Of a stretch of DNA of 32,000 nucleotides, positions 2,719-29,113 are shown piece by piece (the first letter of the stretch is position 1; each line of letters opens with the position of its first letter). A model generated the notes under the pieces. That model was not told where the DNA came from, ran no database searches, and worked only from the letters and a program-made list of their open reading frames with translations. The DNA is from Nostoc punctiforme PCC 73102 (GTDB taxonomy: Bacteria > Cyanobacteriota > Cyanobacteriia > Cyanobacteriales > Nostocaceae), in the NCBI RefSeq assembly GCF_000020025.1, contig NC_010628.1, positions 3,960,001 through 3,992,000 of the forward strand. Reading direction: 5' to 3'. Made by a program: the position numbers and the translations under genes.

Positions 2719-2720
2719 AT

Positions 2721-2770: not shown

Positions 2771-2777
2771 TATCTAA

Positions 2778-10560: not shown

Positions 10561-10596
10561 TTATCTAGCCAAATCGACGCAGGTGTTAGACTCACT

Positions 10597-13156: not shown

Positions 13157-14403
13157 CAGGACTTACGCAACTGGCACAATGCGATCGCCAGTTGATAGTA
13201 CATGAGTATTAATTAAATCTGATTTTGAAAGCCTTGTCTTCGTAATAGAAGTCGCTGTCTTGGAAGCAAAGCATGAAATATTCATGAGAAAATAGGTAGA
13301 AGTTGTATTAGATAAATTTGCTAACGGTAATGAGATTTACTAAGCTTAGTTACTGCCAATACTTATTAAGTAGTCAAATTAATTATACAATTACCAATTT
13401 GGCAGAGCATTTAGAGAGTATTAGTCATGATGCCATTAACTATTATTTGAAAAGAGAGAAATTAACACCTCGTTTACTATGGGATAACGTGAAAGACCTA
13501 GTTGAACCTGATGACAATGGTTACATAATATTTGATGATAGCGTTTTAGATAAAAGGTATTCTGAAGAAATAGAAATAGTCAGAAGACAATATAGTGGTA
13601 ATGAGCATGGTGTCCTTAAAGGCATTGGTGTAGTTAACTGCGTGTATGTCAACCCTACACTTCAAAGATTTTGGGTCATAGATTATCGAATTTTAATCCT
13701 GATGTCGATGGCAAAACTAAGATAGACCATGTGAAAGACATGCTCCAAAGCCTTATGTATCATAAGTTTTTACCATTTGATACTGTTTTGATGGATACAT
13801 GGTATGCGGTACACAGTTTAATGCTATATATTGATAGCTTAGACAAAATTTATTATTGCCCTTTAAAAAATAATCGTTTAGTTGATGATACTTTTGATAA
13901 AAAAATATAAACGGATTGAATTATTAGAATGGAACCAAGAAGAATTAGACTGTGGTAAAATCATAAAAATTAAAGGGTTCCCAGCTAATAAAAAAGTGAA
14001 ACTATTCCGGGTTACTGTTTCTACCAACAGAACGGATTATGTCGCCACTAACGATTTATCTCAAAGTTCCACGGATGTTGTACAAGAGGTGTGTAAAATT
14101 CGTTGGAACATAGAGGAGTTTCACAGGGAAATTAAACAACTAACTGGCATTGAATCTTGTCAGTGCCGGAAAGCTAGGCTTCAAAGAAATCATATTGCTT
14201 GTGCAATGTTGGTTTGGGTTAGGTTAAAGAATTTAGCCTATAGAACTGGCCAAACTATCTATCAAATCAAGCATAACTTGCTTTCTAATTATTTAATTCA
14301 GCAACTGAAACGCCCAAGTATTCTTATGTGCTTGGTTTGATTTAAATTGTCGCGTGTCAAGGCTGCGCCCTGCCCGCTATTTGTGCCAGTTGCGTAAGTC
14401 CTG
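13157..14403 (+). mobile_element. IS4/IS701-superfamily insertion sequence (1247 bp) with perfect 23-bp terminal inverted repeats
   Basis: CAGGACTTACGCAACTGGCACAA at 13157-13179 is the exact reverse complement of 14381-14403. The repeats enclose three collinear transposase ORF pieces. Confidence 0.85.
13330..14340 (+). pseudogene. DDE transposase broken by two homopolymer frameshifts
   Basis: The pieces 13318-13725, 13671-13910 and 13882-14340 join as ..FWVIDYRI|FNPDVDGKTKIDH.. (T4 run, 13691-13694) and ..DDTFDKK|YKRIELLEWNQ.. (A7 run, 13899-13905). Motifs are IIFDDSVLDKRYSEEIEIVRRQYSGNEHGVLKGIGVVN and CKIRWNIEEFHREIK (an x-(2)-R-(3)-E-(6)-K pattern). Confidence 0.8.
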
Positions 14404-14639: not shown

Positions 14640-15458
14640 TTAACTTGCTTGTCGCCCCTTGAAGATGTAGTGTCTGCGATTTACTTTACGCCACGCCTGT
14701 GGGCTAGTTCCATAATATTCACGAAACTGACGAAAGAAGTGATTGATACTGCGATAGCCTAATGCAATAGCAATCTGCTGTATTGACTCGTCTGTTTTCA
14801 AAAGTAAGTCGCGTGCAGCTGTTACGCGCCGCCGAACAATCCAGCGATTTAGCGTTTCTCCAGTTTGATTTCTTACTAGCCCGGTCAAGTACGCTGAAGA
14901 AAAACCCAAGTACTTTGCTACATCGCGCGAACTAATGGATTCATGATAATGAGTTTCAATAAAATTAAAGATTTTTTTTAGCTGAGGACAAGTAGAAAAA
15001 AGCAAAGAAAAATTTGTGAATTCATCTGTCTGATCAGATGTAAACTCTGAGATCCTCTGAGATTCAAAGGCAAACCATTGCTTGAGAATTGCCTGTTTTT
15101 TCAGTTGAGCCGCGATCGCTCCTAGTAATTCCTCTGGAGTAAAAGGCTTGATTAGATAGTCACTCGCTCCTAGTGCCATACCTTGGCGAATCTCTGCTTT
15201 GTTGCTTTTACCAGTTAAAAAGATAAAGGGAATAACGGCGGTAGTTGGATTTTGGTGTAGCGTCTTCAAAACTCCATAACCATCTAGTTCTGGCATCATG
15301 ATGTCGCAGATTGCTAAATCAGGCCGATGTTCGTGTACTTTTTGAACACCAATCCGACCATTTTTAGCGCTCATTGTTTCAAATCCTTCGCTTTCTAAGT
15401 AATCTAACAACATTTCTCTCGTTAGCTGCTCGTCTTCGATAATTAATACTTTAATCAT
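14640..15458 (-). CDS. Response regulator, REC domain plus AraC-type HTH output
   Basis: The REC domain shows MIKVLIIEDE, ..DLAICDIMMPELDG and ..DYLIKPF. The C-terminal region (VAKYLGFSSAYLTGLVRNQTGETLNRWIVRRRVTAARDLLLKTDESIQQIAIALGYRSINHFFRQFREYYGTSPQAWR) is an AraC/XylS HTH. Confidence 0.9.
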   Translation of the reverse strand: MIKVLIIEDEQLTREMLLDYLESEGFETMSAKNGRIGVQKVHEHRPDLAICDIMMPELDGYGVLKTLHQNPTTAVIPFIFLTGKSNKAEIRQGMALGASDYLIKPFTPEELLGAIAAQLKKQAILKQWFAFESQRISEFTSDQTDEFTNFSLLFSTCPQLKKIFNFIETHYHESISSRDVAKYLGFSSAYLTGLVRNQTGETLNRWIVRRRVTAARDLLLKTDESIQQIAIALGYRSINHFFRQFREYYGTSPQAWRKVNRRHYIFKGRQAS

Positions 15459-15519
15459 ATTTTTCCTCGCTCTCTCTATTGATTGGGCGTAAATGCAGAT
15501 ACTTTTGGCTGACTATTTT

Positions 15520-16659
15520 TTACGGGAGCGCGATACTTGCGGTGGGCAAAGCCAACGCAAACTCAGTCCCTACACCAATTTGGCTTTCTACTGTAATTTG
15601 ACCACCGTGGATATCCACAAGCTTTTTCACAATGGCTAATCCCAAGCCATGACCTGGTAAGTCTTCAACATTTTTACCTCGATAAAATGGTTCAAATAAT
15701 CTCTCTCGATCGCCAGGTAGAATACCAATACCTCGATCTTTAATCCGAAAAATCACCTTTCCGTCTTGGTGGTAAACGATAAAATCAACAATGCCACCAG
15801 AAGGAGAATATTTTAGCGCATTTTCAAGTAAATTCGTGAGAATAATTTGAAGCATAATTCTATCTAAGTTTGTAGACAAACAATCGTCTTGACAGCGGAA
15901 ATTGATCGAGTTTTGGTAGCTTTCATTTGGATATAATTCTGCCAAGAGGTTACGGCAAAACTGAAAAATATTAAGTGGCTTTGGATCGAATTTGAGCTTT
16001 CCAGCTTCTGCTCTACCGATAATCAAAACTTCATCGATTAACAAACTCAGCATTTCGACTCCTTTTTGAAGTCGATTTACATACTCTTGGATTTTTTTCT
16101 TACTCCAGTCATCGCTATGACGTTTTAGCAAGTTTGTACAAAATGAGATCGCATTTAGTGGAACGCGCAATTCATGAGAAACCATTGAGACAAGCTGCAC
16201 TCTATTCTGCACCAGTTCTTTTTCTCGTTCTAAAACTTGTTTGTACTTGGTAATATCTACTGCTGTCACCAACTTAGCTGGCTTTCCGGCAAATTCGATC
16301 GCTTTAACTGAATAGTCTAGCCAGCATTCTTCACCATTTTTGCTTAGTAACTTAATTTCTTGATATTGAGGAACAGTACAGCTATCCTGATGAATTTGGA
16401 TCAGTAGAGTTGAAGCAGCTAGGAGGCAGGAGGTAGAGGACAGTTTTCCTTTTGCCTTTCTTAATAAACCGATATGGATTAGCAATTCTTCACAAGAATA
16501 CCCAAACAGACAAGAGGCTGCATTATTGAAATAGAGAATACTCCCATCCGATCTTATTATAATAATTGCTTCCGATACACAGTTCATCAATGATTTAGTT
16601 AAGCATAAGTCCTCTTCTTTTATTTGCTTAGAATGTAACAGCAGATTATTAAAAACCAT
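15520..16659 (-). CDS. PAS-domain sensor histidine kinase
   Basis: The protein shows a PAS-like N-terminal region, an H-box SHELRVPLNAI, an N-box LLENALKYSP, a G1 box IKDRGIGI and a G2 box GHGLGLAIV. It lies 61 nt upstream of the response regulator on the same strand. Confidence 0.9.
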   Translation of the reverse strand: MVFNNLLLHSKQIKEEDLCLTKSLMNCVSEAIIIIRSDGSILYFNNAASCLFGYSCEELLIHIGLLRKAKGKLSSTSCLLAASTLLIQIHQDSCTVPQYQEIKLLSKNGEECWLDYSVKAIEFAGKPAKLVTAVDITKYKQVLEREKELVQNRVQLVSMVSHELRVPLNAISFCTNLLKRHSDDWSKKKIQEYVNRLQKGVEMLSLLIDEVLIIGRAEAGKLKFDPKPLNIFQFCRNLLAELYPNESYQNSINFRCQDDCLSTNLDRIMLQIILTNLLENALKYSPSGGIVDFIVYHQDGKVIFRIKDRGIGILPGDRERLFEPFYRGKNVEDLPGHGLGLAIVKKLVDIHGGQITVESQIGVGTEFALALPTASIALP

Positions 16660-16880: not shown

Positions 16881-16910
16881 TAGTTAATATTTACCATAAC
16901 TTAGTTAATA
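16881..16910. promoter_or_regulatory. Two identical 9-mers TAGTTAATA spaced 21 bp apart in the divergent intergenic region
   Basis: The copies are at 16881-16889 and 16902-16910. Related AGTTAAY copies occur at 16961-16967, 17244-17251 and 17256-17262. The background is AT-rich, so chance is not excluded. Confidence 0.3.
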
Positions 16911-16946
16911 ACACAACAAAAATTAGATTAATTGATTAAGGTTAAC

Positions 16947-16972
16947 CAAAGATTAACTTAAGTTAATCTTTG
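16947..16972. promoter_or_regulatory. Perfect 26-bp palindrome CAAAGATTAACTTAAGTTAATCTTTG
   Basis: This is an exact dyad centred on TTAA, followed by A8. It sits in the 638-bp region between the histidine kinase start and the STAND operon start. It may be an operator. It has no T-tract in terminator orientation. Confidence 0.4.
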
Positions 16973-17240: not shown

Positions 17241-17269
17241 TAAAGTTAATACAAAAGTTAACTTATAAT
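17241..17269 (+). promoter_or_regulatory. Putative promoter of the STAND/kinase/DUF928 operon
   Basis: A consensus -10 hexamer TATAAT lies at 17264-17269, 29 nt upstream of the ATG. It is preceded by two AGTTAAY motifs. No good -35 is present at 17-bp spacing. Confidence 0.3.
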
Positions 17270-17297: not shown

Positions 17298-18995
17298 ATG
17301 AATTTAGAAGAAGTAACAAAAACTATAGATAATGTAGTTTTCGCTAACACAGGTCGGCACTTGAGAGATGTCGAAGCTGTTGTGTTGAAAGGAGCTTGGC
17401 AAGCTAAAACTTACGAACAGATTGCCGAAACTTGTGAATATAGCCTGAATTACATCAAACAAGTAGCCGCCCCCAAGTTTTGGAAATTATTGTCAGAAGT
17501 CTTGGGAGAGAATATCAGTAAAACGAATTTTCGATTTATCATTGAGCGACAGTGGGGAGGACAGACAGAGAAAATATCATCTTCCCTTGAATTGCAGAAT
17601 TCTTTATCAGCAGGAAACATAAATAATATAGATGCAAGCCTACCCTTGGAAATCAGCAATGAGCTAAAAAGTCAAGATTGGGGTGAAGTACCAGAAATAA
17701 ATACTTTCTACGGGCGCACTCAAGAACTTGCCATGTTAAAGAAATGGCTCGTAAATGATAGCTGTCGGCTAGTAGCAGTTGTTGGGATGGGCGGAATTGG
17801 CAAAACAACCCTGTGCGTACACAGCATTCACCAAACACAGGATGAGTTTGAGTTTGTAATTTGGCGAGATTTAAGGAGCGCTCCATCAGTCAGCAAACTA
17901 TTGGCTGAACTGACACAATTTCTTTCTCCTCAGTCAAAAAATTATTTCACAGAAGAAGACATCGACGCTCAAATCTCTGATTTTATTGGTCTTTTACGCC
18001 AACACCGATGTCTAATCGTTTTAGATACAACGACGGTAATCCAGCAAAGTAGTCATTTTGCGGGGCATTATCGAGAAGGATATCAAACTTATGGCAAACT
18101 CTTAAAACGATTAGGACAAGAGTCTCATCGCAGCTGCTTAATGTGGATAGCTCGTGAGAAACCGCGAGAAATCGTTTTGATGGAAGGAGAAAATCGTCCG
18201 GTTCGCTCTTTATATCTCAAAGGGTTAAACTCGCAAGCAAAGGAAATCTTCCAAGAAAAGAACTTGTTAGATCCGAATAGTTGGGAAGACTTGATTCAAC
18301 TTTATCGAGGTAATCCCTTAGCTTTAAAAATTGTTGCTAGTACGATTCAAGAATTGTTCGGTGGGAAGGTTTCTGCTTTCCTGAAGCAGGAGACTATAGT
18401 TTTTGGGGAACTTAACGATATTTTAGACGAGCAATTTGAGTGCATATCGGCTCTAGAGCAAGAAATTCTCTACTGGCTGGCCATTGAATGCCAACCGATT
18501 TCCTTATCACAGTTGCGTGCAGATATTTTAGCGCCTGTGGCTCAATCAGAATTAATCGAGGGTTTAGAATCGCTTTTGAGGCGATCGCTAATTGAAAGAA
18601 CTGTGGCCCAAGAGGAAGTCATCTTCTCACTTCAGCAGCCTGTAGTTTCTCAATACGTCATCAACCAAATATGTGAGCGGATTTGTACAGAGATTCAGGA
18701 ATTTAGTAAAAACCATAAAATTGAAAAAATTGAGCTTTTGAAAACTCTAGTCTTAGTTAAAAAAACACAAGACAATGAAGCGATCCAAGATATGCAAACC
18801 CGCTTAATCTTAAAACCCATTAAGAACCAACTATGTAAAATCTTAAGAGATGAAAGTCTGATTTCAGAACAGTTAACCAAAATTCTCTCCTTATTACAAG
18901 GAAAAACTGCGCTAGTAGTCGGGTATGCTAAAAGCAATATTGAAAGTTTACTTTTAGAACTAAAATTGGATCTGGGCGATCTCAGTTACCGATAA
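17298..18995 (+). CDS. STAND NTPase (NB-ARC/AP-ATPase type) with N-terminal HTH-like domain and no C-terminal repeat sensor
   Basis: 565 aa. The N-terminal ~85 aa (VVLKGAWQAKTYEQIAETCEYSLNYIKQVAAPKFWKLLSEVLGENISKTNFRFIIER) is the helical domain common at the N-termini of cyanobacterial NB-ARC/WD40 proteins. Other motifs are the P-loop VVGMGGIGKTTL (17784-17810), Walker B CLIVLDT, a GNPLALKIV (GxPLA) motif, and a winged-helix-like ILYWLAIECQPISLSQL. Confidence 0.8.
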   Translation: MNLEEVTKTIDNVVFANTGRHLRDVEAVVLKGAWQAKTYEQIAETCEYSLNYIKQVAAPKFWKLLSEVLGENISKTNFRFIIERQWGGQTEKISSSLELQNSLSAGNINNIDASLPLEISNELKSQDWGEVPEINTFYGRTQELAMLKKWLVNDSCRLVAVVGMGGIGKTTLCVHSIHQTQDEFEFVIWRDLRSAPSVSKLLAELTQFLSPQSKNYFTEEDIDAQISDFIGLLRQHRCLIVLDTTTVIQQSSHFAGHYREGYQTYGKLLKRLGQESHRSCLMWIAREKPREIVLMEGENRPVRSLYLKGLNSQAKEIFQEKNLLDPNSWEDLIQLYRGNPLALKIVASTIQELFGGKVSAFLKQETIVFGELNDILDEQFECISALEQEILYWLAIECQPISLSQLRADILAPVAQSELIEGLESLLRRSLIERTVAQEEVIFSLQQPVVSQYVINQICERICTEIQEFSKNHKIEKIELLKTLVLVKKTQDNEAIQDMQTRLILKPIKNQLCKILRDESLISEQLTKILSLLQGKTALVVGYAKSNIESLLLELKLDLGDLSYR

Positions 18996-19032
18996 CAGTT
19001 AATCCCTTTTTTCCAACCTCAAACGTTCAAAC

Positions 19033-21234
19033 ATGAGCTACTGTATCAACCCCTGGTGCCTTCATCGCAAAAATTATGACGATCGAGAGTTTTGCCAGAA
19101 TTGTGGCTCTAGTTTGACGATCAACGAGCGCTATCAAGTAATTAAGCCCTTACGAGAATTAGATAAAAATCACCACACAGAAATTTTTGAAATCGATAAC
19201 TTAGGAACCATAAAGGTTTTAAAAGTTTTAACAAGCAATCGACGGCGCTTGATTGAACTGTTTGAGCAAGAAGCCAGAATTCCTAAGCATTTGAAGCATC
19301 TAGGAGTTCCGCAAGTCGATACTTATTTTTGTTTTTCTCCTAAAGACAGAACCGAACAATTGCATTGCTTGGTAATGGAGAAAATTCCCGGACAGAATCT
19401 CACTCATTGGTTGGAGGAAAATAAAGTACTATCTGAAGAACTGGCAATTAATTGGTTATTACAACTCGTCAAACTATTAGAAGGATTCCATCAAGAGCAA
19501 ATTTTGCATCGAGATATTAAGCCATCTAATATCATGCTTCGTCCCGACGGAAAACTGGTATTGATTGACCTTGGTGCAGCAAGACAGATGACTATGACTT
19601 ATGTCGAAAAACTACAAGGAGGTGACATTACCAGAGTTTATTCTATGGGATATACAGCACCAGAGCAAATGCAAGGTCAAGCTGTTTATCAATCAGATTT
19701 TTTCGCTCTAGGGCGGACTTTGGTAAATTTATTGACAGGTATACATCCTAATGAATTGCCGAAAGATCCTCAAACCGAACGGTTAATTTGGCGAAATCAA
19801 GCACCTCAGATTTCCACGGGGTTGGCAAATTTAATCGACGATTTGATGACACCATCGCCCCAAGAGCGACCTCTAGAACCACAGATAATTTTAGAGCAAC
19901 TTAGGGTAAGGCAAGAACAAGACCGCCAGATTAATGAGTTAAGTGGAGGGCAAAAAAAATTATTCTCAAGAGAGAGAATTTTTGCTGTAAGTAACTTTAG
20001 TAGCATTTGGGGGAATTTTTGTAAAGTAATTATTCTGAGTTTAGCAATCGCCTTTTTCGTCATCGGTATCAGATATGTGGGACTACTCCAACCCTTTGAG
20101 TTAAAAACTTTCGATCGCGTGATGGCAATCCGACCAATAGAAAAACCAGATCCGCGCCTTTTGCTGATCACTATCGATGAAGCTGACATTCAATATCAAA
20201 ATCAGATGCAAATGCCGATCCGATGGTCTTTATCCGATCTGGCACTCCTGCAACTTCTAGAAAAACTGGAGCCATATCAACCAAGAGCCATAGGCATAGA
20301 TATCTATCGTGATTCCCCAGTCAACCCCAAATATCCCAATTTAGCAAATCGCCTGCGCTCCGACAATCGCTTTTTTGCTCCCTGTAAAGTTCCTGCTCCT
20401 GAAGATGGTGTTGCAGATGCTATTCCTCAACCTCCAGAAGTGCCAAAATCACGCTTGGGCTTTAGCGATTTTGTTGCAGACGATGACGAAATTGCTCGTC
20501 GCCATCTCTTACATTTAACTCCTCCAGTTGCGTCTTCTTGTGCCGCAGAATACGCCTTGAGTCTCCAGATAGCGCTCCATTATTTAGATAGAGAAGGCAT
20601 TAAGCCAAATGTTACTTCAGATGAGCAATTACAAATTGGCAAAGTATTATTTAAGCAATTAACCGCTCATAGCGGTGGTTATCAACACATAGATGCATCA
20701 GGATATCAAATATTGCTTAATTACCGTTCTCTACGCTCTCCTGTAGATATTGCCCAGCAAGTCTCTCTCAGGGATATTTTAGAGGATCGGGTTACTCCTG
20801 AATTCATCAAATTAGTCAAAGATCGCATAGCGATCATTGGGGTCACTGCTGTCAGTGCTGCTGATGACTGGAAAACTCCCTACAGTGCTACAGCGCTTCC
20901 CGCTCGGAGAGAAATACCTGGAATGTTTGTCCAGGCTCAGGCCATCAGCCAGATTCTTAGTGCAGTTCTGGATGGGCGACCTTTAATTTGGTGGTGGCCT
21001 AGTTGGCTAGAAGCAATTTGGATTTGGGGATGGTCGTTGCTGGGTGGTATTCTTGCTTGGTATATTCGTCGCCCGTTGTATTTGGGACTGTCAGTTGCGA
21101 TCGCACTATCCTTTCTATTCGGTATTTGCTGTATTATATTTTTCAACGCTGGATGGATACCACTTCTTCCACCTGCATTAGCACTAGTAACTATCCAAGT
21201 AGTAGTTGTATCATTAGTTCGACCGACTCGCTGA
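19033..21234 (+). CDS. Ser/Thr protein kinase with N-terminal 4-Cys zinc ribbon, TM segment, CHASE2 domain and C-terminal TM helices
   Basis: The zinc ribbon is C4/C9/C21/C24 (CINPWC..CQNCGS). Kinase motifs are KVLKVL, HRDIKPSNIM, IDLGAAR and GYTAPEQ. A TM segment VIILSLAIAFFVIGIRYVGLL follows. The CHASE2-like region reads FDRVMAIRP..LLLITIDEADI..WSLSDLALLQLLEKLEPYQPRAIGIDIYRD. Three hydrophobic helices close the protein. Confidence 0.85.
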   Translation: MSYCINPWCLHRKNYDDREFCQNCGSSLTINERYQVIKPLRELDKNHHTEIFEIDNLGTIKVLKVLTSNRRRLIELFEQEARIPKHLKHLGVPQVDTYFCFSPKDRTEQLHCLVMEKIPGQNLTHWLEENKVLSEELAINWLLQLVKLLEGFHQEQILHRDIKPSNIMLRPDGKLVLIDLGAARQMTMTYVEKLQGGDITRVYSMGYTAPEQMQGQAVYQSDFFALGRTLVNLLTGIHPNELPKDPQTERLIWRNQAPQISTGLANLIDDLMTPSPQERPLEPQIILEQLRVRQEQDRQINELSGGQKKLFSRERIFAVSNFSSIWGNFCKVIILSLAIAFFVIGIRYVGLLQPFELKTFDRVMAIRPIEKPDPRLLLITIDEADIQYQNQMQMPIRWSLSDLALLQLLEKLEPYQPRAIGIDIYRDSPVNPKYPNLANRLRSDNRFFAPCKVPAPEDGVADAIPQPPEVPKSRLGFSDFVADDDEIARRHLLHLTPPVASSCAAEYALSLQIALHYLDREGIKPNVTSDEQLQIGKVLFKQLTAHSGGYQHIDASGYQILLNYRSLRSPVDIAQQVSLRDILEDRVTPEFIKLVKDRIAIIGVTAVSAADDWKTPYSATALPARREIPGMFVQAQAISQILSAVLDGRPLIWWWPSWLEAIWIWGWSLLGGILAWYIRRPLYLGLSVAIALSFLFGICCIIFFNAGWIPLLPPALALVTIQVVVVSLVRPTR

Positions 21235-21274
21235 TCCTGATTTAGTAAACGTCAAAAATTTTAGGTTTGAAATT

Positions 21275-22042
21275 ATGACTGAGAAGAGACTACTTCTTAA
21301 ATCGATCGGCCTGAGATATATTGTGCCTTTAGCGATCGCTAGTCTAACAATTTTTTCTTTACCAATACAGGCGCAAGTTATACAACCGAAATTACCTGAC
21401 AACGGAGCGCCTATCGGTCGCCGCAGAGGAGGAACTAGTCGCAATGATTGTCCAGCAGTCAACATTCCAGTTACCGCCTTAGTTCCTGGTAAAGAGGCTT
21501 CGGGTGATTCTCAAGATTCTGCATCTTTTTTAGCATCAACCATCTCCGAACATCCGACATTTTGGGTCTATACCCCAGAGCTACCAAATAATGCTCGTTC
21601 TGGAGAATTTATATTACAAAATGAAGTCGGAGAAGATATTTATCAAAAGTCTTTAACCCTACCTCAAACAGCATCATTTATTGCTATTAGTCTGCCATCC
21701 AGCCCTAAATATTCTCTACAAATAGGTAAAAAGTATCATTGGTATTTCAAAATATATTGTGGAAAACCAGAACCAGAAACGGGATATTTTTACGTTGATG
21801 CCTGGATAGAAAGAATTGCTCTGACAAACGATCTCGATCTCAAGTTAAAGATGCAAAAATCTCTGAAGTATATCACTTACTTTGAACAGAATATTTGGTA
21901 TAATGCACTGACCAATTTGGGCGAGCAAATTCGTAGTAATTCACAAAATAATAATTTTAAAACTGATTGGGTTAACTTTTTAAAATCTATTGACTTGCAA
22001 GATATTAGCCAAGAACCTGTAGTGATAATTGATAAGTTGTAA
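21275..22042 (+). CDS. DUF928-like secreted protein
   Basis: 255 aa. The signal peptide is LRYIVPLAIASLTIFSLPIQA|QV. It is followed by PDNGAPIGRRRGGTSRNDC, which I recognise as the N-terminal DUF928 pattern (P..G.P..R.GGG.R). Confidence 0.7.
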   Translation: MTEKRLLLKSIGLRYIVPLAIASLTIFSLPIQAQVIQPKLPDNGAPIGRRRGGTSRNDCPAVNIPVTALVPGKEASGDSQDSASFLASTISEHPTFWVYTPELPNNARSGEFILQNEVGEDIYQKSLTLPQTASFIAISLPSSPKYSLQIGKKYHWYFKIYCGKPEPETGYFYVDAWIERIALTNDLDLKLKMQKSLKYITYFEQNIWYNALTNLGEQIRSNSQNNNFKTDWVNFLKSIDLQDISQEPVVIIDKL

Positions 22043-22059
22043 ACTTTAGAATCTTATGG

Positions 22060-22088
22060 GGTGCGTTAAGGCTTTAGCCTAACGCACC
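22060..22088. terminator. GC-rich hairpin between the convergent operons (possible bidirectional terminator or dispersed repeat)
   Basis: GGTGCGTTAAGGC-TTTA-GCCTAACGCACC forms a 12-bp stem with one bulge. No clear U-tract follows on either strand. A partial second copy of the GGTGCGT motif lies at about 22102. Confidence 0.3.
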
Positions 22089-22137
22089 GAAAATCTTGGA
22101 TGGTGCGTCAGCCTACGGCATAACACAATCTGCAAAA

Positions 22138-22179
22138 CTGAATTCTGAATTCTGAATTCTGACTTCTGAATTCTGATTT
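22138..22179. repeat. Heptamer tandem repeat (CTGAATT x6, STRR-type)
   Basis: The units are ctgaatt ctgaatt ctgaatt ctgactt ctgaatt ctgattt, ending immediately next to the CHAT gene stop codon (22181). Confidence 0.85.
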
Positions 22180-22180
22180 A

Positions 22181-24730
22181 TTAAAGCCAGTTTCCTATCA
22201 AAACGAAACTTGCCCAAAAATAAGGACGTTTTTCTTTTTTCAATAGAGCTAATTGGGCTTGACGAAGTGCTTTAGCTCTAGTCAATCCTTTATTTAATTC
22301 TCCGTACAACTGATGCATGATTTCACTAGTGGAAAAATCATCTATTGACCACAGGCTTGCTACTGTACTCTCTGCTCCTGCCTTAACAGCAATTCCAGCT
22401 AATCCTAAAGATGCTTGCCGATCGCCCACAGCAGTTTCGCACGAACTTAGGACTAGTAATTCGATAGAATTAGAACCATTTGAGTTATTTTGCTTGAGGA
22501 GATCGACTAAATCTTCGATATTGAGCAGTTGATCCCAAGTGAGAATGAAGGTTTTTTCAAGGTTAGAACTAAATTGACTGTGAGTAGCCAGATGAACGAC
22601 AGAAAAATCAGTCGTTCGCAATTTATTTTGCAGGTTTGTTTTAGTAAACTTGCTATCCAGAAGTTCTTCACTTTTGGGTATATCAACCTGGATGCGGGCT
22701 AACTCTTTTTTAACATTAGTTAGTGGAGCGAATTCTCGACCTTCAATCGTGCGTTTCTGACTGACTCCAGCCGCTAAAACCTTAATTTTTGAACTGCTGC
22801 GTAAAGGTTTTGGTTCTAGAAGCTGCAAACCTGGTGCTAGAGCGATCGCATATTTTTCAATTAAATATTTCTCTTGTTGGGCATCGTATAAAACTGACAT
22901 AGGAATGTTACGCAGAGAACCATCTAACACAAACACCAAAGTTTCTATATTGCTGTTTAAATCTGCTTCTAAAGGACGGATCAACCAATCATATAGCTGC
23001 TGGGAGAGATGTTTGACTTTAGAAGTTTGGGTAACATCAGGTAGATATTGTTGTAACTTACCAATAGTACTTTCTACCTCCTCTTGAGATATGGTAGTTG
23101 CATAATAGTGAAGTTCCTCCTGCCGAGGCAGCTTCAGAATAATGGCTAATTGTTTCTCCAGAATAATTGGATAGATAACTGCTGCCGTGGAATCATTTTT
23201 ATCAACAATTCGATCGATTTCTACTCTCGGCTTTAAACAAGGTTCTCGAAGAAAATTTTCTAGTTCTGCTAATTGTAAAGATTCAATGGTAGTCCGAGCT
23301 TTTTGAAGATTATTGCTTTTGACATTAGAACTTCCCTGCGTTTGCAAGAGCGATTCGACTAGCTGCCGATAGACAGGTTCTACTTTTTCTCGAAAAGAAA
23401 ACTGCATCTGAGAATTCATTGCAATCATATCGAGACGCAGAGATTGTAAGCTCACAATAGCTGCATCATAAGCTGCGATGGCTGCGCCAACGTCTCCGAC
23501 GAACGCACCTTTGATGTCTCCTTGAGCTTTTAGGATATGTCCTAATTGCCATTGCCACTGATAGGCTATGTCAGTTGCTTGGATGGCTTGAGCCGAAAAA
23601 AGTGCTTTTTGGGTAAGGGTTAGAGCTTCTGACAACTGCTGGTTCTGTTCATAAAGCCAACCAAGATATCCAAGGGCATAAGATTTAGCCCGCTCATCGC
23701 CCAGGCTTTTTGCTTGTTGGAGAACTGCAATCAACTCTTTGGCAACATCTTTCAATTCAGGAGTATTAGTACCAGAGTATTGATTGAGACAAACTAGACT
23801 TTGAGCAAAATTAATTCGAGCGTAAATTGTTGTTTGAGTGGTAGGCAAGTCCTTGAGTTTGGATTCAATTTGTGGTATTAGACTCTGGGCTTGTATTAGC
23901 TGATTAATCTTCAGCAGGAGACTAAGGTGATTGAGTTGTGCTTGCATCCTAGTTTCCGCAGAAATGGATTTAGTTGCTGCTTGCTCATACAGTGAAGCCG
24001 CTTGCTGATACGACGCAATTTTTGCATCATCTTTGGCTTGCTCGCCACAATTTAAAGGACTTGAGTTTTGTTTATTGATTCTGCCCTGTTGAATCTGTAT
24101 GTTATCACCTAGAGTTCGTTGAGCATTACCCAGGCTTACCAAAATAGCACTCTCGGTGCTTGGCGATGGTAGTTGCCGAGCCAATTGCAAACTTAGGTTT
24201 AAAACTTTTATTGATAAATTTGGGCGATCGAGTTTTTGCAGGACATCCCCAAGACTGCGTAAGCCATTGGCTTTAATTAGAGAGTTTGGTTTTGCTTCTA
24301 GGACTTGGAACCAATCATTTTGCCCGCGATCTTTGTTGTTGTCTTGGATTAATCTGCGACAGTCAAGCTGAGTAATTTTAAAGGCTTGGAGGATCTGATT
24401 GCAAGCTTTCAGATCCAGTCCGTTGGCTTGCATGGCTCCAGCAACGTTAATTAAACTTTGAGTCTGGCCTTCTTCATTCCCCGACCGCTTGTAGGCATTG
24501 GCTGCCTCTTGCCAAATATTTGCCGCCGCATCAAATTGTCCAGCTTCGTAGAGATTTTTGCCTTCAATTGATAATTTTGCAGCCTCTGTTGCTGGTTCTT
24601 TGGCTGCTGCTTGAGGTAATAACATTGGAATGTTTACGAATAAAATTATGCCTACTAAGACAAGGGCAATCATTTTGATCGGCTTGACTAAGGTGCGGCG
24701 ATCGCGTTTTCTAGTTTTTCTAATTACCAT
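22181..24730 (-). CDS. TPR-repeat CHAT-domain protein (caspase-like protease) with N-terminal signal/anchor
   Basis: 849 aa. A basic n-region and hydrophobic segment (KRDRRTLVKPIKMIALVLVGIILFVNIPMLLPQAAA|KEP) are followed by a long TPR-like helical region. The C-terminal CHAT domain has an intact His/Cys dyad context: VVHLATHSQF (His codon 22580-22582) and LLVLSSCETAVG (Cys codon 22439-22441). Confidence 0.9.
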   Translation of the reverse strand: MVIRKTRKRDRRTLVKPIKMIALVLVGIILFVNIPMLLPQAAAKEPATEAAKLSIEGKNLYEAGQFDAAANIWQEAANAYKRSGNEEGQTQSLINVAGAMQANGLDLKACNQILQAFKITQLDCRRLIQDNNKDRGQNDWFQVLEAKPNSLIKANGLRSLGDVLQKLDRPNLSIKVLNLSLQLARQLPSPSTESAILVSLGNAQRTLGDNIQIQQGRINKQNSSPLNCGEQAKDDAKIASYQQAASLYEQAATKSISAETRMQAQLNHLSLLLKINQLIQAQSLIPQIESKLKDLPTTQTTIYARINFAQSLVCLNQYSGTNTPELKDVAKELIAVLQQAKSLGDERAKSYALGYLGWLYEQNQQLSEALTLTQKALFSAQAIQATDIAYQWQWQLGHILKAQGDIKGAFVGDVGAAIAAYDAAIVSLQSLRLDMIAMNSQMQFSFREKVEPVYRQLVESLLQTQGSSNVKSNNLQKARTTIESLQLAELENFLREPCLKPRVEIDRIVDKNDSTAAVIYPIILEKQLAIILKLPRQEELHYYATTISQEEVESTIGKLQQYLPDVTQTSKVKHLSQQLYDWLIRPLEADLNSNIETLVFVLDGSLRNIPMSVLYDAQQEKYLIEKYAIALAPGLQLLEPKPLRSSSKIKVLAAGVSQKRTIEGREFAPLTNVKKELARIQVDIPKSEELLDSKFTKTNLQNKLRTTDFSVVHLATHSQFSSNLEKTFILTWDQLLNIEDLVDLLKQNNSNGSNSIELLVLSSCETAVGDRQASLGLAGIAVKAGAESTVASLWSIDDFSTSEIMHQLYGELNKGLTRAKALRQAQLALLKKEKRPYFWASFVLIGNWL

Positions 24731-27700
24731 GACAGATACCTGGCTTTATCCCAAAACTAGAAGCCTCGGAAGTTGCAGAGGCAGTCAAAATAACTCGTCC
24801 TTGTCCATCGAACCTCCAGCTATTTGCTTCTAACGGGGGTGTGGAAGCGACATCTGGGGATTGGTTTTGTTTTGCGGTATTGATAGGGTTTTCATCAACT
24901 GCGATCGCCGGTACCCTTAAGGCTTCTCCTGGCTGTGGAGGTAATCCGCCTCGTCCTGTCACAATAAATTGACTTTCTGGTTGATTTGTGCTGACTCTAC
25001 TCGCCGCACACCCTTGACTAATTAACCCACTCACATCAACTAGATTTGTAGGCAAAGCGACTAACTCTTTTCTGATATCTGCATTTTGGATATTGATTAC
25101 GATTTCGCCATCGAGCAGGGGATTTTGTTGAGAAAAGGCAGTAATATCGCTAAGTGGAGTGAGGTTTTCGCGCTTTTCGATCCCAAAAATTCCTTGGGTA
25201 GTAATTTTGATTAAACCACCTTTGCCTTCAAAAGCATTAGCTGTGATATCGCTATTTTCTTTAGGGACAGCGACTAAAAATTTTGTGTTGATATCAATAT
25301 TGCCACCATTACCTCCAGCCCCTTCTTGTCCTGCTGTGGTAGAAATACTGCTATTATTGCGTAGCAGTAGTATGTCTCGCACTTGCAGTTGAATATTACC
25401 ACCTTCACTACTAACTGTATCTGCTAATAAATCGGATTGTCTTCGCAGAGTTAGGGAACCAGTTGTAATTCTTAAATCGCCTGCATTTCCTTGGCCTTTG
25501 CTGTTGACGGAAATTTCAGAGTCATTAGTGAGATTTACAGAGTCAAAAGCCTCAATTTCGATATTTCCACCTTTTCCTTGTTCTGATGTACTAGCTGCGA
25601 TCGCAGCTTTATCGCTCAGTGTTAACTTAGAGTTAGGCATCATTAAGTCAATCTGAATATTTCCTCCATTCCCTTGTCCAAAGGTACTGGCGCTCATAAT
25701 GCCTCCCTGTGCCAGAGCTAGGGAATCTGCTTTGATATTAATGTCACCGCCATTTCCAATTGCAGATGATTCCGCTTCAGTAGTGATTCCAGTGCCAAAG
25801 CCATTGCTGTCTTCACCATCCACTCTGACAGCACCTCTCACATCCACGGAGACATTGCCAGCATTTCCGTTTCCCAAGGTACGAGCATTCAAAGAACCTC
25901 CCCGTGTAAGATTCAGGGAATTCGCTTTGACATTAATATCGCCACCATCTCCAATTGCTGATGATTCCACTTGGCTGAAAATAGCACTGCCAAAACCATT
26001 GCTATCTACACCGTCAAGAATGACAGCACCCTTCGCATCCACTGAGATATTGCCAGCATTTCCCCTTCCTGAAGTACTGCTACTTAACTGATTTACCTGC
26101 CCTAAAGTCAGAGATTCTGCTGTAATATTAATGTCGCCACCATTTCCAACTGCTGATGATTCCACTTCACTGAAAATAGCGCTGCCAACGCCATCGCTAT
26201 CTACACCGTCAAGAATGACAGCACCTTTCACATCCACAGAGATATTCCCACTATTTCCTTCTCCAAAAGTAGTGGCACTCAAAGAAACTCCCTGTTTTAG
26301 AGTTAGGGATTCTGCTTTGATGTTAATATCACCACCATCTCCAATTGCCGATGATGTTACTTGACTAGTGATAGTGCCACCAAAGCCACCGCTATCTACA
26401 CCGTCAAGAATGACAGCACCTTTCACATCCACAGAGATATTCCCAGCATTTCCTTCTCCAAAGATGGCGGTATTCAAAGTACCGCCATGTATAATACTCA
26501 GGGATTCTGCTTTAATATTAATATCGCCACCATTTCCAACTGCTGATGGTAAAATTTGACTGCTTATTCTACTAGGATAATTCTCGCTGTTGCTAACTAC
26601 ACCATCCAGGGTGACGGCACTACCCACGTCTACAGAGATATTCCCGCTATTTCCTTCTCCAAATGTACCAGTATCTACAAATCCACCCTGTGTAAGACTC
26701 AGGGATTCTGCTTTGATATTAATATCGCCACTATTGCCAATAGCCGAGGGTGATACTGCACTCCTGATTCCACTAACAAATCTAAAACTATCTTTACCGT
26801 CTAGAGTAACAGAACCCTTCACATCCACAAAGATATTCCCACTATTTCCTCTTCCCAAGGTACTGCCACTTATTAAACCTCCCCGTGTTAGAGTCAGGGA
26901 ATCTGCTTTGATATTAATATCGCCACCATTTCCAACTGCTGATGATTGCACTTGATTGGCGATTAAACTAGGAATGCCATTGCTATTTACACCGTCCAAA
27001 CTGATAGCACCCTTCACATCAACGAAGATATTCCTACTATTTCCTTTTCCTAAGGTACTGGCAGTCACAGTACCACCTTGGGTTAAAATCAGCGATCGCG
27101 CCTTAAGATTAATGTCACCACCATCTCCAATTGCCGATGGTGCGACTAGACTCATGATTCTACTAGGAGAGGTAGAGCTATTTTCACCATCCAAGGTGAC
27201 GGCATCACTTACATCAACGAAGATATCCCCACTATTTCCTCTCCCTAAAGTACTAGCACTCAAATAACCGCCCTGTGTTATTTTCAGAGACTCTGACTTG
27301 AGATTAATGTCGCCACTATTTCCAACTCCTGATGGTTGTACTTGATTAATGATTCTACTAGGAGATGTAGAGCTATCTTCACCGTCCACCGTAATAGCAC
27401 CACTCACATCAACCAAAATATTCCCACTATTCCCTTGTCCCAAGGTGCGGGAACTCAACTGACTTCCACCAGTTAAATTCAGTGAACCTGCTTGAATATT
27501 AATATTGCTACTGTTGCCTGTAGCATTAGGACTGACTTGGTTAGTAACACTGCTGGATTGACTGATGGATATAGCTTGTGTGGCATTTAAGCTAATATCG
27601 CCTACTGTTGTTGTTGGTGTTCCCAAACCTGCTGCGATGCCAGCATTAAGAGAACTACCTTCACTAATATCTATATTTTTGCCATGAAGTGCGATCGCAC

Positions 27701-28523
27701 CACCTGAATCACCCGCAACATTCACAAAAGCTTCTCTGAGTGAAATATCGCCTCGCACAACTTCATCAGGAAATGTCAGACTTTGGTTATTTAGATTCAA
27801 CCCAATCTCCCCCTGACTAGCTACACCTCCTAATTCCACTCGACCACCCAAAGCATTTAATCCGCCTGTATTTAGTACGTTTCCTCCCACCAATAGCAAG
27901 CTTTGACTATCAGCAACCCTCAAACCAACTACAGGGTTGTTAGCGCCATCAACTCCGGCTGAAGCAATGGAATTGTTTTCGATTGGCCCTGCACCAATTT
28001 GATTAAAAAATAAAGCTGAGGGTTTAATTGTGAGTAATAATGGGGTTTCTGGGGAAGATGCACTAAAAAAGCCCTGATTGCCAAACTTGATGGCGTTGGC
28101 TGATGTCGCTACAAAAGAACCCTTCACATCTAAAATTGCATTTTTTCCAAAGATAATTCCGTTGGGATTAATCAAAAATAAGTTTGCTTTTCCTAATACT
28201 CCTAATTTTCCGAGAATTTCAGAGCGATCGCTACCTGTTACTCTACTTATAATGTTCTCAATCCCCGCAGGATTGGTAAAATATACAGCCTTTCCTTCAC
28301 CAACGTTAAATTCTCGAAAACTATGGAATAGGTTGATGCCTCGCTGCGCTCCACCATCTATATTTTCTATGGGAAGACCATCCGAATTATTTATGACTTT
28401 GGAACTTTCAATATTTAGTGTATTGTCGGGGACAATTTTACTCTGGGCGCAGGTTCGCTCTCCTGATGAAATAACAAGTGTTTCAATTAAAGCTAGGCAA
28501 ATTGCTACTTTTATATTTTTCAT
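24720..28523 (-). CDS. Filamentous-haemagglutinin-like exoprotein (N-terminal TPS secretion domain plus beta-helical repeats)
   Basis: The signal is MKNIKVAICLALIETLVISSGERTCAQS. TPS-domain motifs are GINLFHSFREFNV and ANLFLINPNGIIFG (the NPNG motif). About 10 tandem 65-67-aa repeats follow. The conserved-looking C-terminal segment is SQGCAASR..FIVTGRGGLPPQP..WRFDGQGRVILTA. I chose the start at M9 of the track ORF (the track starts at 28547). Confidence 0.9.
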   Translation of the reverse strand: MKNIKVAICLALIETLVISSGERTCAQSKIVPDNTLNIESSKVINNSDGLPIENIDGGAQRGINLFHSFREFNVGEGKAVYFTNPAGIENIISRVTGSDRSEILGKLGVLGKANLFLINPNGIIFGKNAILDVKGSFVATSANAIKFGNQGFFSASSPETPLLLTIKPSALFFNQIGAGPIENNSIASAGVDGANNPVVGLRVADSQSLLLVGGNVLNTGGLNALGGRVELGGVASQGEIGLNLNNQSLTFPDEVVRGDISLREAFVNVAGDSGGAIALHGKNIDISEGSSLNAGIAAGLGTPTTTVGDISLNATQAISISQSSSVTNQVSPNATGNSSNINIQAGSLNLTGGSQLSSRTLGQGNSGNILVDVSGAITVDGEDSSTSPSRIINQVQPSGVGNSGDINLKSESLKITQGGYLSASTLGRGNSGDIFVDVSDAVTLDGENSSTSPSRIMSLVAPSAIGDGGDINLKARSLILTQGGTVTASTLGKGNSRNIFVDVKGAISLDGVNSNGIPSLIANQVQSSAVGNGGDINIKADSLTLTRGGLISGSTLGRGNSGNIFVDVKGSVTLDGKDSFRFVSGIRSAVSPSAIGNSGDINIKAESLSLTQGGFVDTGTFGEGNSGNISVDVGSAVTLDGVVSNSENYPSRISSQILPSAVGNGGDINIKAESLSIIHGGTLNTAIFGEGNAGNISVDVKGAVILDGVDSGGFGGTITSQVTSSAIGDGGDINIKAESLTLKQGVSLSATTFGEGNSGNISVDVKGAVILDGVDSDGVGSAIFSEVESSAVGNGGDINITAESLTLGQVNQLSSSTSGRGNAGNISVDAKGAVILDGVDSNGFGSAIFSQVESSAIGDGGDINVKANSLNLTRGGSLNARTLGNGNAGNVSVDVRGAVRVDGEDSNGFGTGITTEAESSAIGNGGDINIKADSLALAQGGIMSASTFGQGNGGNIQIDLMMPNSKLTLSDKAAIAASTSEQGKGGNIEIEAFDSVNLTNDSEISVNSKGQGNAGDLRITTGSLTLRRQSDLLADTVSSEGGNIQLQVRDILLLRNNSSISTTAGQEGAGGNGGNIDINTKFLVAVPKENSDITANAFEGKGGLIKITTQGIFGIEKRENLTPLSDITAFSQQNPLLDGEIVINIQNADIRKELVALPTNLVDVSGLISQGCAASRVSTNQPESQFIVTGRGGLPPQPGEALRVPAIAVDENPINTAKQNQSPDVASTPPLEANSWRFDGQGRVILTASATSEASSFGIKPGICHGN
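25640..27515 (-). repeat. Intragenic tandem array, ~10 units of ~195-201 bp
   Basis: The protein unit is GGDINIKAESLTLTQGG.LSA.T.G.GN.GNI.VDVKGAV.LDG.DS.G..S.I.SQV.SSAIGN. Long near-identical nucleotide stretches recur, for example ATATTAATATCGCCACCATTTCCAACTGCTGATG at about 26515 and 26915, with one mismatch at about 26125. Confidence 0.85.
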
Positions 28524-28719
28524 CCAATGCCAACAGATGTGACTCATAGGCTAACTACTCTTATTAAGATGGATTGTACCAGTTTCGGGGTAAATACATC
28601 TCAAATTTTTAAATTCATAAATGAGCAAAGGGAAAACTTTAGTATGAACAACAGTATTAGCTTAAAACACTACAAACAATATTTTGTCAAGGGAGTTTAA
28701 ATATATTTTCTATAAAATT

Positions 28720-29034
28720 TTAGGTTAAATACACATTAAAACTATCAAAAAAATGACTCATTGAGATAGAAGATTTTCCATCAGGAGAAATAAGTCTGTG
28801 CAATCCGCCGCCAACAATTTCTTGTAGATCAGTTTCGCTTAACTCGTTATTGATTGCTGCGGACTCCAAAAGCTCTGCCTTAGCAAGGTTTAATTCATCG
28901 GGAGTATAATCAAAACCACCAGCTTGCAAAATTTGTCTCCGTTCTTGCTGATTAGCCGTTTGCTCCAATTTGGTTCTGAATTCCTCATCTACTAAGAGCT
29001 TAGTGTAGAGTGCTTTTGCGCTTTGAATAGACAT
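28720..29034 (-). CDS. Nif11-type leader RiPP precursor peptide (putative LanA) with a Cys-free core
   Basis: 104 aa from the MSIQSAKALYTKLLVDEEFRTKLEQ methionine, a Nif11-like leader. The double-glycine end of the leader is ..SETDLQEIVGG|G. The core is LHRLISPDGKSSISMSHFFDSFNVYLT. It lies 130 nt downstream of lanM on the same strand. Confidence 0.75.
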   Translation of the reverse strand: MSIQSAKALYTKLLVDEEFRTKLEQTANQQERRQILQAGGFDYTPDELNLAKAELLESAAINNELSETDLQEIVGGGLHRLISPDGKSSISMSHFFDSFNVYLT

Positions 29035-29113
29035 TTTAAAATTTTTATATTTTCTATTAGGATTGTTCAATACATATCTCTATAAATTAATTATGCGTAT
29101 CCAAAAATGTTTG

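Follow-up and report, generated by a model that had tools for sequence, protein, structure and literature searches.

What, if anything, joins a STAND (signal transduction ATPase with numerous domains) NTPase, a receptor kinase, a DUF928 protein, a caspase-like protease and a large exoprotein whose genes lie side by side in the genome of Nostoc punctiforme PCC 73102? The five genes fall within the 32,000-nt stretch analysed here (contig NC_010628.1, positions 3,960,001 to 3,992,000 of the forward strand; hereafter the window, numbered from its first base), and their products, ACC81652-ACC81656, carry generic names only; a protein encoded on an 8.23 Mb contig matches the DUF928 protein at 100% identity. 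On the plus strand, with gaps of 37 and 40 nt, are a short STAND NTPase (565 aa, 17298..18995; Pfam NB-ARC 4.9e-13 and PF26355), a receptor Ser/Thr kinase (733 aa, 19033..21234; 4-Cys prefix, Pkinase 6e-29, CHASE2 3e-67) and the DUF928 protein (255 aa, 21275..22042; Pfam 1.3e-52). Converging on them from the minus strand, and overlapping each other by 11 nt, are a TPR-CHAT caspase-like protease predicted to be exported or membrane-anchored (849 aa, 22181..24730; Pfam CHAT 2e-61) and a TpsA-type repeat exoprotein of the two-partner secretion (TPS) kind (1275 aa, 24720..28547; Pfam TPS 8e-52, TIGR01901). The original prediction, made from the letters of the DNA, had these open reading frames (ORFs), gaps and overlap exactly, and Pfam and NCBIfam models supported each of its domain calls; it read the five genes as one envelope-directed set. 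By a modest balance of probability, we favour instead a modular trans-envelope signalling system that lies next to a surface-protein module. Gene content, conserved linkage and a cis-element upstream of the STAND gene are established; partner roles, phosphorylation and DNA binding are what we infer.

Linkage was followed with the DUF928 alignment as seed in a genome-collection scan, which returned at least 585 loci in species-representative genomes; the 80 most similar to the query were analysed (individual loci are cited by L numbers). Nearly all of these come from several cyanobacterial orders, and the cluster is, on sequence evidence, widespread in cyanobacteria. ORF calling on the loci was crude (first start codon, 100-aa minimum), the hidden Markov models (HMMs) were built from the window domains, iterated on the loci and hence trained and applied on the same loci, and 230 ORFs at ranks -7 to -4 from DUF928 served as an internal control for adjacency. 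CHASE2 was present in 77 of the 80 loci. In 75/78 it was the next gene 5' of DUF928, read from the same strand across a median gap of 10-14 nt; at other ranks it turned up in 2/741, and among the 230 distal control ORFs once. TPR-CHAT and TPS genes were found in 61 and 59 of the 80 loci respectively and filled the first three positions downstream of DUF928, so that the remembered co-occurrence of DUF928, CHASE2, CHAT and TPS genes, which the original prediction had offered from recall, holds with fixed positions. Fisher tests of the positional enrichments gave p-values of 1e-18 to 1e-100, which are overstated as the loci are related. Independent precomputed Pfam annotation showed the same context for DUF928 proteins with just 33-35% identity to that of the window. 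One locus was labelled as a non-cyanobacterial bin (L007, CAZZZY010000016.1, an 'uncultured Acetobacteraceae' metagenome-assembled genome); it is fully syntenic with the window, with histidine kinase and response regulator genes, STAND, kinase-CHASE2, DUF928 (72% identity), TPR-CHAT, TPS, Nif11 and LanM, and almost certainly comes from Nostoc, its contig having been mis-binned with an alphaproteobacterial genome.

The form found in the window is the minority one. In only 10 of the 80 loci does the CHASE2 protein carry a kinase head; in 66/80 it bears a CHAT/caspase head (Pfam), with genes for a DUF1822 protein and for a small protein of weak similarity to sigma factors in front. Of the 80 related loci, 59-66 show the features of an arrangement of EACC2-caspase, extracytoplasmic function (ECF) sigma factor and DUF1822; in the window, where the head is a kinase and STAND lies upstream, the scanned ORFs included neither DUF1822 nor a sigma-like gene. 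The CHASE2 domains of kinase-type and caspase-type receptors are 55-65% identical, the DUF928 and CHASE2 distance matrices correlate (Mantel r = 0.90), and the nearest DUF928 relative has the same receptor type in 75/77 cases; one periplasmic module therefore bears interchangeable cytoplasmic heads, kinase or caspase. The caspase/ECF/DUF1822 part is already known from computational work, with CHASE2 as one variable C-terminus and no link to DUF928 or TPS (Kaur et al. 2021, PMC8195603); the text of that paper holds no matches for 'hemagglutinin' or 'TPS', and it is not among the papers mentioning DUF928. The cluster was not described in any text found by literature searches on DUF928, on DUF1822, on CHASE2 with TPS, and on CHAT together with haemagglutinin and cyanobacteria. 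The system of Kaur et al. is a sister architecture in homologous loci, in which DUF928 likewise follows CHASE2, then TPS, TpsB and TPR-CHAT genes, and transcriptional output is predicted for both; in the window, a 4-Cys Ser/Thr kinase takes the place of the EACC2-caspase and a helix-turn-helix (HTH) STAND protein that of the ECF sigma factor and DUF1822. A third locus class was also seen, with a caspase-CHASE2 protein of ~850 aa and DUF928 and, on the opposite strand, TPR-CHAT, DUF1822 and a 475-aa sigma-like protein. In L068, the upstream neighbour (1909-6612) is a giant CHAT-nSTAND1-WD40 protein and a different STAND type therefore joins this class; L077, L079, L081 and L082 have ORFs of similar size to it, the likeness being one of size alone.

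The receptor of the window consists, from Pfam and NCBIfam models and hydrophobicity, of a 4-Cys zinc-ribbon head (41.6 bits, cut-off 24), a Hanks-type kinase (Pkinase, 101.7 bits), a transmembrane (TM) helix, CHASE2 and a C-terminal TM bundle, an order that fits a cytoplasmic kinase and a periplasmic CHASE2 domain. Across 11 kinase orthologues the beta3 Lys, alphaC Glu, HRD, DFG and APE elements are conserved, the window kinase having DLG for DFG. A PDB sequence search with the CHASE2 region returned no relatives.

Directly upstream of this receptor, the STAND protein is built of an N-terminal HTH_VMAP-M9 head (precomputed Pfam, PF26355), a disordered linker, an NB-ARC domain with winged helix (49.4 bits, cut-off 23.5) and a helical tail, and its family conserves the Walker A and B motifs (GMGGIGKT, LIVLD) together with GNPLAL. 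The HTH-like head of the original prediction is thus borne out by a Pfam match. In the AlphaFold (AF2) model (mean predicted local distance difference test, pLDDT, 78.7), too, a helical head stands apart from an NB-ARC core, with a disordered linker between them; the best fold matches in the PDB are Apaf-1, the plant resistosomes ZAR1 and NRC4, CED-4 and MalT (E = 1e-10 to 5e-8). A C-terminal repeat arm of TPR, WD40 or LRR type is typical of STAND NTPases, yet not obligatory; no TPR/WD40 sensor arm was found here, only a helical tail of ~120 aa, and nearly all of the 120 best matches listed from a family of at least 2680 members share the same short two-domain architecture of 530-600 aa. The gene lies immediately 5' of the kinase gene in 9/10 kinase-type loci, the contig of the tenth being cut at that point; in eight of the nine the two genes are -4 to 54 nt apart. 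All three distant loci found with STAND as seed (3/3) likewise have a Ser/Thr kinase gene directly downstream; that of Microcoleus encodes a kinase with TPR in place of CHASE2, in a locus with no DUF928. STAND joins the CHASE2/DUF928 set, as had been asked in the original prediction, where the receptor is of the kinase type (9/10 loci); one locus, L169, has a kinase-CHASE2 gene and no STAND.

A precedent is the AfsK/AfsR pair of Streptomyces coelicolor, in which AfsR, a STAND protein with a DNA-binding domain and a NOD ATPase, is phosphorylated by the nearby kinase AfsK (PMC10936776). Both pairs share the N-terminal DNA-binding domain with a NOD ATPase and the genetically linked Hanks-type kinase, with transcription as the output (predicted for the window pair); they differ in that the head of AfsR is a SARP domain and that of the window protein HTH_VMAP-M9, that the window STAND protein has no TPR arm, and that the window kinase is a transmembrane CHASE2 receptor. 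The likeness is one of analogy and not of orthology, the NCBIfam models for AfsR and AfsK scoring only 22.3 bits (cut-off 1430) and 31.3 bits (cut-off 1300).

The spacer in front of the STAND gene carries an element that we describe here for the first time. The 638-nt divergent spacer between the STAND gene and an upstream histidine kinase gene holds seven AGTTAA/TTAACT copies, against 0.92 expected and with 0/2000 shuffles reaching seven, in two clusters that are candidate operators: a distal one at 16881..16967 (copies at 16882, 16903, 16953 and 16961) and a proximal operator or promoter element at 17243..17264 (copies at 17244, 17256 and 17258), 35-54 nt upstream of the STAND start codon. 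The 'AAAGTTAATACAA(A/G)AGTTAAC' of the proximal cluster is kept in L007. The element was present in 12/12 STAND-upstream spacers examined, from Nostoc, Pleurocapsales, Aetokthonos and Microcoleus, in 3-10 copies each (4 in one spacer of 57 nt). Over the 575+ intergenic regions of the 80 loci, STAND-upstream spacers hold 8 of the top 9 AGTTAA clusters, and AGTTAA is the most enriched of 2080 hexamers in STAND spacers (75 vs 7.1 expected, p = 4e-46, overstated as the loci are related). The element tracks the STAND gene: it is kept in STAND loci without the histidine kinase and response regulator genes, caspase-type loci with those genes and without STAND have background AGTTAA counts, and it was not found in L169, a locus without STAND. 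Because the element follows STAND and not its divergent neighbours, the distribution supports the view that the STAND protein is an autoregulating DNA-binding factor. No k-mers were common beyond chance to this spacer and the TPS, Nif11 and DUF928|CHAT spacers. Secondary AGTTAA clusters lie 3' of DUF928 in L010 (10796-11729, 7 copies), upstream of a response-regulator-like gene, and in L015 (10661-11631, 4 copies), and the DNA-binding factor may act on these as well.

The divergent neighbours on the minus strand are a PAS sensor histidine kinase (379 aa, 15520..16659; PAS_9, HisKA, HATPase_c) and its partner response regulator with an AraC-type HTH output (272 aa, 14640..15458; Pfam Response_reg 1.8e-28, HTH_18 3e-22). 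The kinase is, by sequence, a paralogue of the scytonemin-cluster kinase (359 bits with the NCBIfam scytonemin histidine kinase model, cut-off 865). Orthologues of the pair (265-534 bits for the regulator) lie divergently upstream in 7/8 kinase-type loci that have that flank, also in L175, and in ~13 caspase-type loci, where they adjoin the ECF-like genes. This recurrence makes it probable that the pair belongs to the conserved neighbourhood, and the left border of the original prediction, which omitted the conserved genes at 14640-16659, was therefore drawn too tightly. Just past the response regulator gene, L017 (1829-3409) has a TolC-like outer-membrane efflux protein (OEP, 2e-65), and ORFs of similar size, identified by size alone, stand at the matching position in L015 (1631-3190) and L026 (1630-3246); no OEP was found among the scanned window ORFs.

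The remaining member of the plus-strand unit, the DUF928 protein, has a Sec-like leader, a variable linker and, in the family alignment, a near-invariant 'PDNGAPxGRRRGGTSRxxC' motif and the invariant cysteines C59 and C162. In its AF2 model (pLDDT 79) the motif is part of a disordered region, beyond which come a beta-sandwich and a helical bundle. DUF928 is retained in loci without TPS or CHAT and is missing from stand-alone TPS/CHAT loci, for which reason it is assigned to CHASE2. The adjacency of CHASE2 and DUF928 in N. punctiforme has been the subject of a passing remark (PMC5587647), and two other CHASE2 systems likewise encode a signal-peptide protein beside the receptor: in magnetotactic bacteria the gene of the signal-peptide protein MtxA is followed by that of a CHASE2 adenylate cyclase (PMC4439547), and the Burkholderia 'BiofilmReg' operon comprises a response regulator, a LysM-FecR protein, a CHASE2 histidine kinase and a DUF4136 protein (PMC5192318). 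The latter paper stated in 2016 that the factors recognised by CHASE2 were not known. Partner families (FecR/LysM and MtxA versus DUF928, without sequence similarity) and output domains differ between these systems and that of the window, and in Burkholderia, with MtxA and in N. punctiforme alike any interaction of partner and CHASE2 is putative. The best PDB fold match of the DUF928 model was the C-terminal domain of MtxA (Ig-like/Big with TPR-like, E = 1.4e-4), a likeness that we treat as a fold-level lead only.

On the opposite strand, the exoprotein has a hydrophobic leader (residues 8-30), a TPS domain (8.4e-52, 177 bits, cut-off 33.5; TIGR01901, 89 bits) with the NPNG motif in 'FLINPNGIIFG', and a body of 8.7 tandem copies of a 195-nt unit, encoding 65-aa repeats. 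Near its C-terminus is a 'FIVTGRGGLPPQP' motif at residue 1198; the corresponding family motif, 'F(I/V)(V/I)TGRGGLPPxP', lies ~87 residues before the end and was found in 59/66 TPS homologues and 0/862 other ORFs. Its neighbour, the TPR-CHAT protein (CHAT, 208 bits, cut-off 24), belongs to a family of at least 3697 members. The catalytic dyad that had been proposed is intact, with H717 and C764 invariant in 56/56 homologues, and a hydrophobic N-terminal segment is present in 51/55 TPR-CHAT homologues vs 0/63 N-termini of the cytoplasmic caspase-CHASE2 proteins that served as control, which fits a predicted extracytoplasmic protease. Export or topology calls here rest on hydrophobic segments and conservation, and hydrophobic segments agree with the export signals or extracytoplasmic domains earlier ascribed to the CHASE2 kinase, DUF928, TPR-CHAT and TPS proteins.

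Two known systems bear on this pair. Bordetella FhaB/FhaC is a two-partner secretion system with proteolytic maturation by SphB1 and CtpA; here too a TpsA protein with TPS domain has a beta-helical repeat body, and a C-terminal segment might be retained in the periplasm and trimmed there by an envelope protease dedicated to it. The FhaB proteases are subtilisin-like or tail-specific, whereas here the processing role would fall to a clan-CD caspase-like TPR-CHAT protein, and the window has no TpsB. In the Craspase system, a type III-E CRISPR gRAMP reportedly acts with the TPR-CHAT protein Csx29, which is said to cleave Csx30 and release a sigma factor. The TPR and CHAT architecture is shared, and the sister caspase-type loci also couple a CHAT protease to a sigma-factor pathway; Csx29, however, is cytoplasmic and the present protein is predicted to be exported, and no cas genes were found among the scanned window ORFs. 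Kinship of the window protein with Csx29 is not supported, since PDB searches with the protein and with the family profile found TPR proteins only and not Csx29. Apart from these, the metagenome contig L094 (Ga0335395_10002016, 4243-11171; 89% identical to the window) has an intact STAND gene, a 174-aa CHASE2 fragment, no DUF928 and a single 1467-aa ORF joining TPS C-terminal and TPR-CHAT similarity, an arrangement that is either locus decay or mis-assembly.

Whether the two modules work together is the point on which the readings of this locus divide. A TPS or TPR-CHAT gene comes next after DUF928 in 60/78 loci, 48 of them with same-strand orientation and a median gap of 64 nt. In a metagenome scan seeded with TPR-CHAT, among 30 fully flanked loci, which partly duplicate genome contigs and are not fully independent, 18 had DUF928 and CHASE2, 22 had TPS or TpsB and 12 were missing DUF928/CHASE2; TpsB was usually directly upstream of TPR-CHAT, and DUF928 usually convergent just downstream of it, the latter as in the window. 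TpsB genes were present in 21 of the 80 DUF928-seeded loci, and true TpsBs were confirmed in L033, L169 and L026. TPS and TPR-CHAT occur alone in L090, L091 and L093. Within 10 kb, TPS, TpsB and TPR-CHAT are all missing from five of the ten kinase-type loci, none of these five being from Nostoc, and what lies downstream there is heterogeneous; TPR-CHAT is present in only two of the ten. The five genes are thus no single unit, as the original prediction had it. Nor did anything show that the CHASE2 kinase monitors the protease and the exoprotein, the operator-like motif being missing from TPS promoter regions.

These last observations are what two unrelated neighbouring systems would produce, with STAND-kinase-CHASE2-DUF928 (and the histidine kinase/response regulator pair) serving another envelope or extracellular cue and an independent adhesin accompanied by its maturation protease. 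The 12/30 metagenome loci without DUF928/CHASE2 point the same way, as do the missing TpsB of the window and one genome in which the TPS/TPR-CHAT pair lies apparently ~220 kb from a kinase-type locus, if two records of 342,301 bp are one contig. Chance neighbours would not be expected to show, however, the contrast between proximal and distal ORFs (TPR-CHAT 53/218 vs 0/230; TPS 71/218 vs 3/230), nor an adjacency that is reciprocal and often same-strand with short gaps across several cyanobacterial orders; L169 moreover joins kinase-CHASE2, DUF928, TPR-CHAT, TpsB and TPS independently. We regard two unrelated systems as somewhat unlikely. Because the modules adjoin in most related loci, the exoprotein/protease pair is in our view probably coupled to the CHASE2-DUF928 sensor, as its input or as a regulated output, and this is the weakest step of the signalling reading.

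In the signalling system that we favour, DUF928 would be exported to the periplasm and act as a co-receptor or ligand carrier of the CHASE2 domain of the kinase, and a change in CHASE2 would be relayed across the membrane to the 4-Cys/Hanks kinase at the N-terminus. The target of this kinase would be the short STAND NTPase encoded next to it, a protein that lacks a sensor arm and would be a transcription factor; its HTH head would bind the AGTTAA clusters and control the STAND-kinase-DUF928 operon and probably also the divergent PAS histidine kinase and AraC-type regulator genes, resembling AfsK/AfsR. The TPS exoprotein would be secreted via a TpsB encoded elsewhere, and the membrane-anchored periplasmic TPR-CHAT protein would most likely mature or trim it, the Gly-Arg-Gly-Gly motif near the TPS C-terminus and the similar GRRRGG of DUF928 being candidate recognition or cleavage sites; that the GRGG-type motifs are cut by CHAT is speculation. 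A bolder version, which we consider unlikely, has DUF928 as direct partner or ligand of CHASE2 and the exported TPR-CHAT protease turning the state of the TPS exoprotein into a periplasmic signal read by CHASE2, through cleavage at GRGG-type motifs of TPS, DUF928 or both. If true, multicellular cyanobacteria would have a new type of cell-surface signalling: a substrate of type Vb secretion would be linked to either of two exchangeable cytoplasmic outputs, one running from kinase to STAND transcription factor and the other from caspase to ECF sigma.

Several points weigh against the signalling system as just set out, all of whose functional steps we infer. The evidence for binding of DUF928 to CHASE2 consists of linkage and co-divergence, and a Mantel r of 0.90 would also be expected from co-inheritance of linked genes; the two are moreover separable, L175 and L176 having kinase-CHASE2 genes without DUF928, and L010 a DUF928 without CHASE2 beside two LanM genes. 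The fold match to MtxA is modest (TM-score 0.35-0.49), and the DUF928 profile found neither MtxA nor other relatives among PDB sequences. The kinase orthologues (none of 11) have no canonical Gly-rich (GxGxxG) loop, with 'PLRELxxNHxTEIFEI' in its place. A factor other than the STAND protein could bind the AGTTAA element, and in the AfsR precedent phosphorylation alters oligomerisation and DNA affinity, with little effect on the activation of transcription in vitro (PMC10936776). For the surface module, no TpsB (POTRA_2, ShlB) was found among the scanned window ORFs, which leaves the TPS system locally incomplete, and no AGTTAA cluster was found upstream of TPS, Nif11 or LanM in the window or of the TPS units of related loci. 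Coupling of TPS/TPR-CHAT to the kinase-type variant is weak, the two standing beside a kinase-type receptor only in the window, L007, L008 and L169. Finally, the loci are phylogenetically related and non-independent and are the 80 most similar to the query, so that relatedness and selection both inflate the p-values, and the metagenome set partly duplicates genome contigs (L108 = L030 and L119 = L038, for instance).

A different function for the same proteins is suggested by defence-system models: PADLOC PD-T4-6 sub-models match the 4-Cys and kinase head (residues 1-298; 19033-19930) end to end at 350 bits. The locus would then be a biological-conflict system, anti-phage or for programmed cell death, in which the kinase-STAND pair senses an invader and the caspase-like protease or the exoprotein is the effector. 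Kaur et al. (2021) read the sister architecture (EACC2-caspase, ECF sigma and DUF1822) in this way, the STAND fold is nearest to Apaf-1 and the NLRs, and the CHAT-nSTAND1-WD40 protein flanks one locus class. The PD-T4-6 models, however, also call housekeeping PASTA-type kinases, found in every S. thermophilus genome and of minimal phenotype (PMC11514479), and the other four proteins had no meaningful PADLOC matches; the PD-T4-6 match may reflect no more than similarity within the kinase family. Three of the products, and the sensor domain as well, are predicted to be extracytoplasmic and would be ill-placed for intracellular invaders, the predicted export of TPR-CHAT does not suit a cytoplasmic suicide effector, the TPS C-terminus is a conserved motif and no polymorphic toxin, and the HTH head and the conserved operator-like element fit gene regulation. 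A conflict system therefore seems improbable to us. As a separate matter, the PADLOC set appears to include the 4-Cys kinase family, with possible false 'defence system' calls in cyanobacterial genomes.

To the right of the exoprotein gene, on the same strand and co-directional upstream of it, are genes for a Nif11-leader precursor (28720-29070) and a full-length LanM (29164-31926, 949 bits), with spacers of 172 and 93 nt; the Nif11 leader ends in 'EIVGGG' and is followed by a 27-residue core. Conceivably, a secreted ribosomal peptide of this Nif11-leader/lanthipeptide type is what the kinase-type module senses or regulates, in the manner of peptide autoinduction, with LanM and Nif11 as the true partners of the module. 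LanM also stands beside DUF928 in L007, L009, L010 and L038, C39-peptidase ABC exporters follow DUF928 in L011, and two Nif11 genes and an S8 peptidase gene lie near the STAND-kinase pair of L175. But the link is missing from most kinase-type loci and from nearly all caspase-type ones (LanM in one, L038), no AGTTAA cluster precedes Nif11 or LanM, and the window core has no cysteine and so cannot form lanthionine rings. We hold this explanation to be very improbable and retain the modular signalling system. A general link to ribosomally synthesised and post-translationally modified peptide (RiPP) genes was considered on the strength of such neighbours and rejected when examination of the remaining kinase-type loci showed it missing at most of them. 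RiPP-type genes were nevertheless seen near DUF928 or STAND-kinase in some genomes, as LanM with rows of small ORFs, C39-peptidase ABC exporters, or Nif11 genes with an S8 peptidase (L009 11177-14482, L010 251-9742, L038 702-3983, L011 7413-12738 and L175 1-3108); no exporter for Nif11/LanM was found in the window.

The arrangement matters beyond this locus. CHASE2, defined in 2003, occurs in kinases, cyclases and histidine kinases across bacteria, and its near-obligate pairing with DUF928, over at least 585 DUF928 loci, names a testable candidate partner; the periplasmic module shared by the kinase and caspase variants is a natural domain-swap experiment. For the question of how a kinase may control a STAND transcription factor without a sensor, the STAND-kinase pair offers a simple model, its conserved AGTTAA element being the predicted binding site. 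In filamentous cyanobacteria, the exported caspase-fold protease with the TPS exoprotein, a family of thousands, would be an uncharacterised system of envelope proteolysis. N. punctiforme itself lends itself to genetic work.

The surroundings had been described in the original prediction as decaying. This holds for bases 1-14.4 kb, with two intact and at least one degraded insertion sequence (IS) elements and gene fragments, but not for the direct neighbours of the five genes, namely the PAS histidine kinase and response regulator genes on the left and the Nif11 precursor and LanM genes on the right, all of which are intact. In the left part are two intact DDE_5 transposase genes and a third transposase broken up over three frames, a WD40 ORF of 375 aa that starts with TTG and looks like what is left of the C-terminus of a larger protein, and an ORF of 79 aa that, judged by eye only, is like a C-terminal fragment of a membrane methyltransferase; the coordinates listed for these features of decay are 1282-2622 (-), 6579-7889 (+), 13318-14340 (+), 4617-5744 (-) and 10048-10287 (-). 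Rfam and tRNA scans of the window gave no matches, and scans for sigma-70 promoters and terminators over 14.4-32 kb gave counts equal to those of shuffles. Between the convergent DUF928 and TPR-CHAT genes lie nested stem-loops (22060-22115) and, at 22134-22179, about five tandem copies of a heptamer (GAATTCT/TGAATTC), an array that we take to resemble the short tandem heptamer repeats common in Nostoc.

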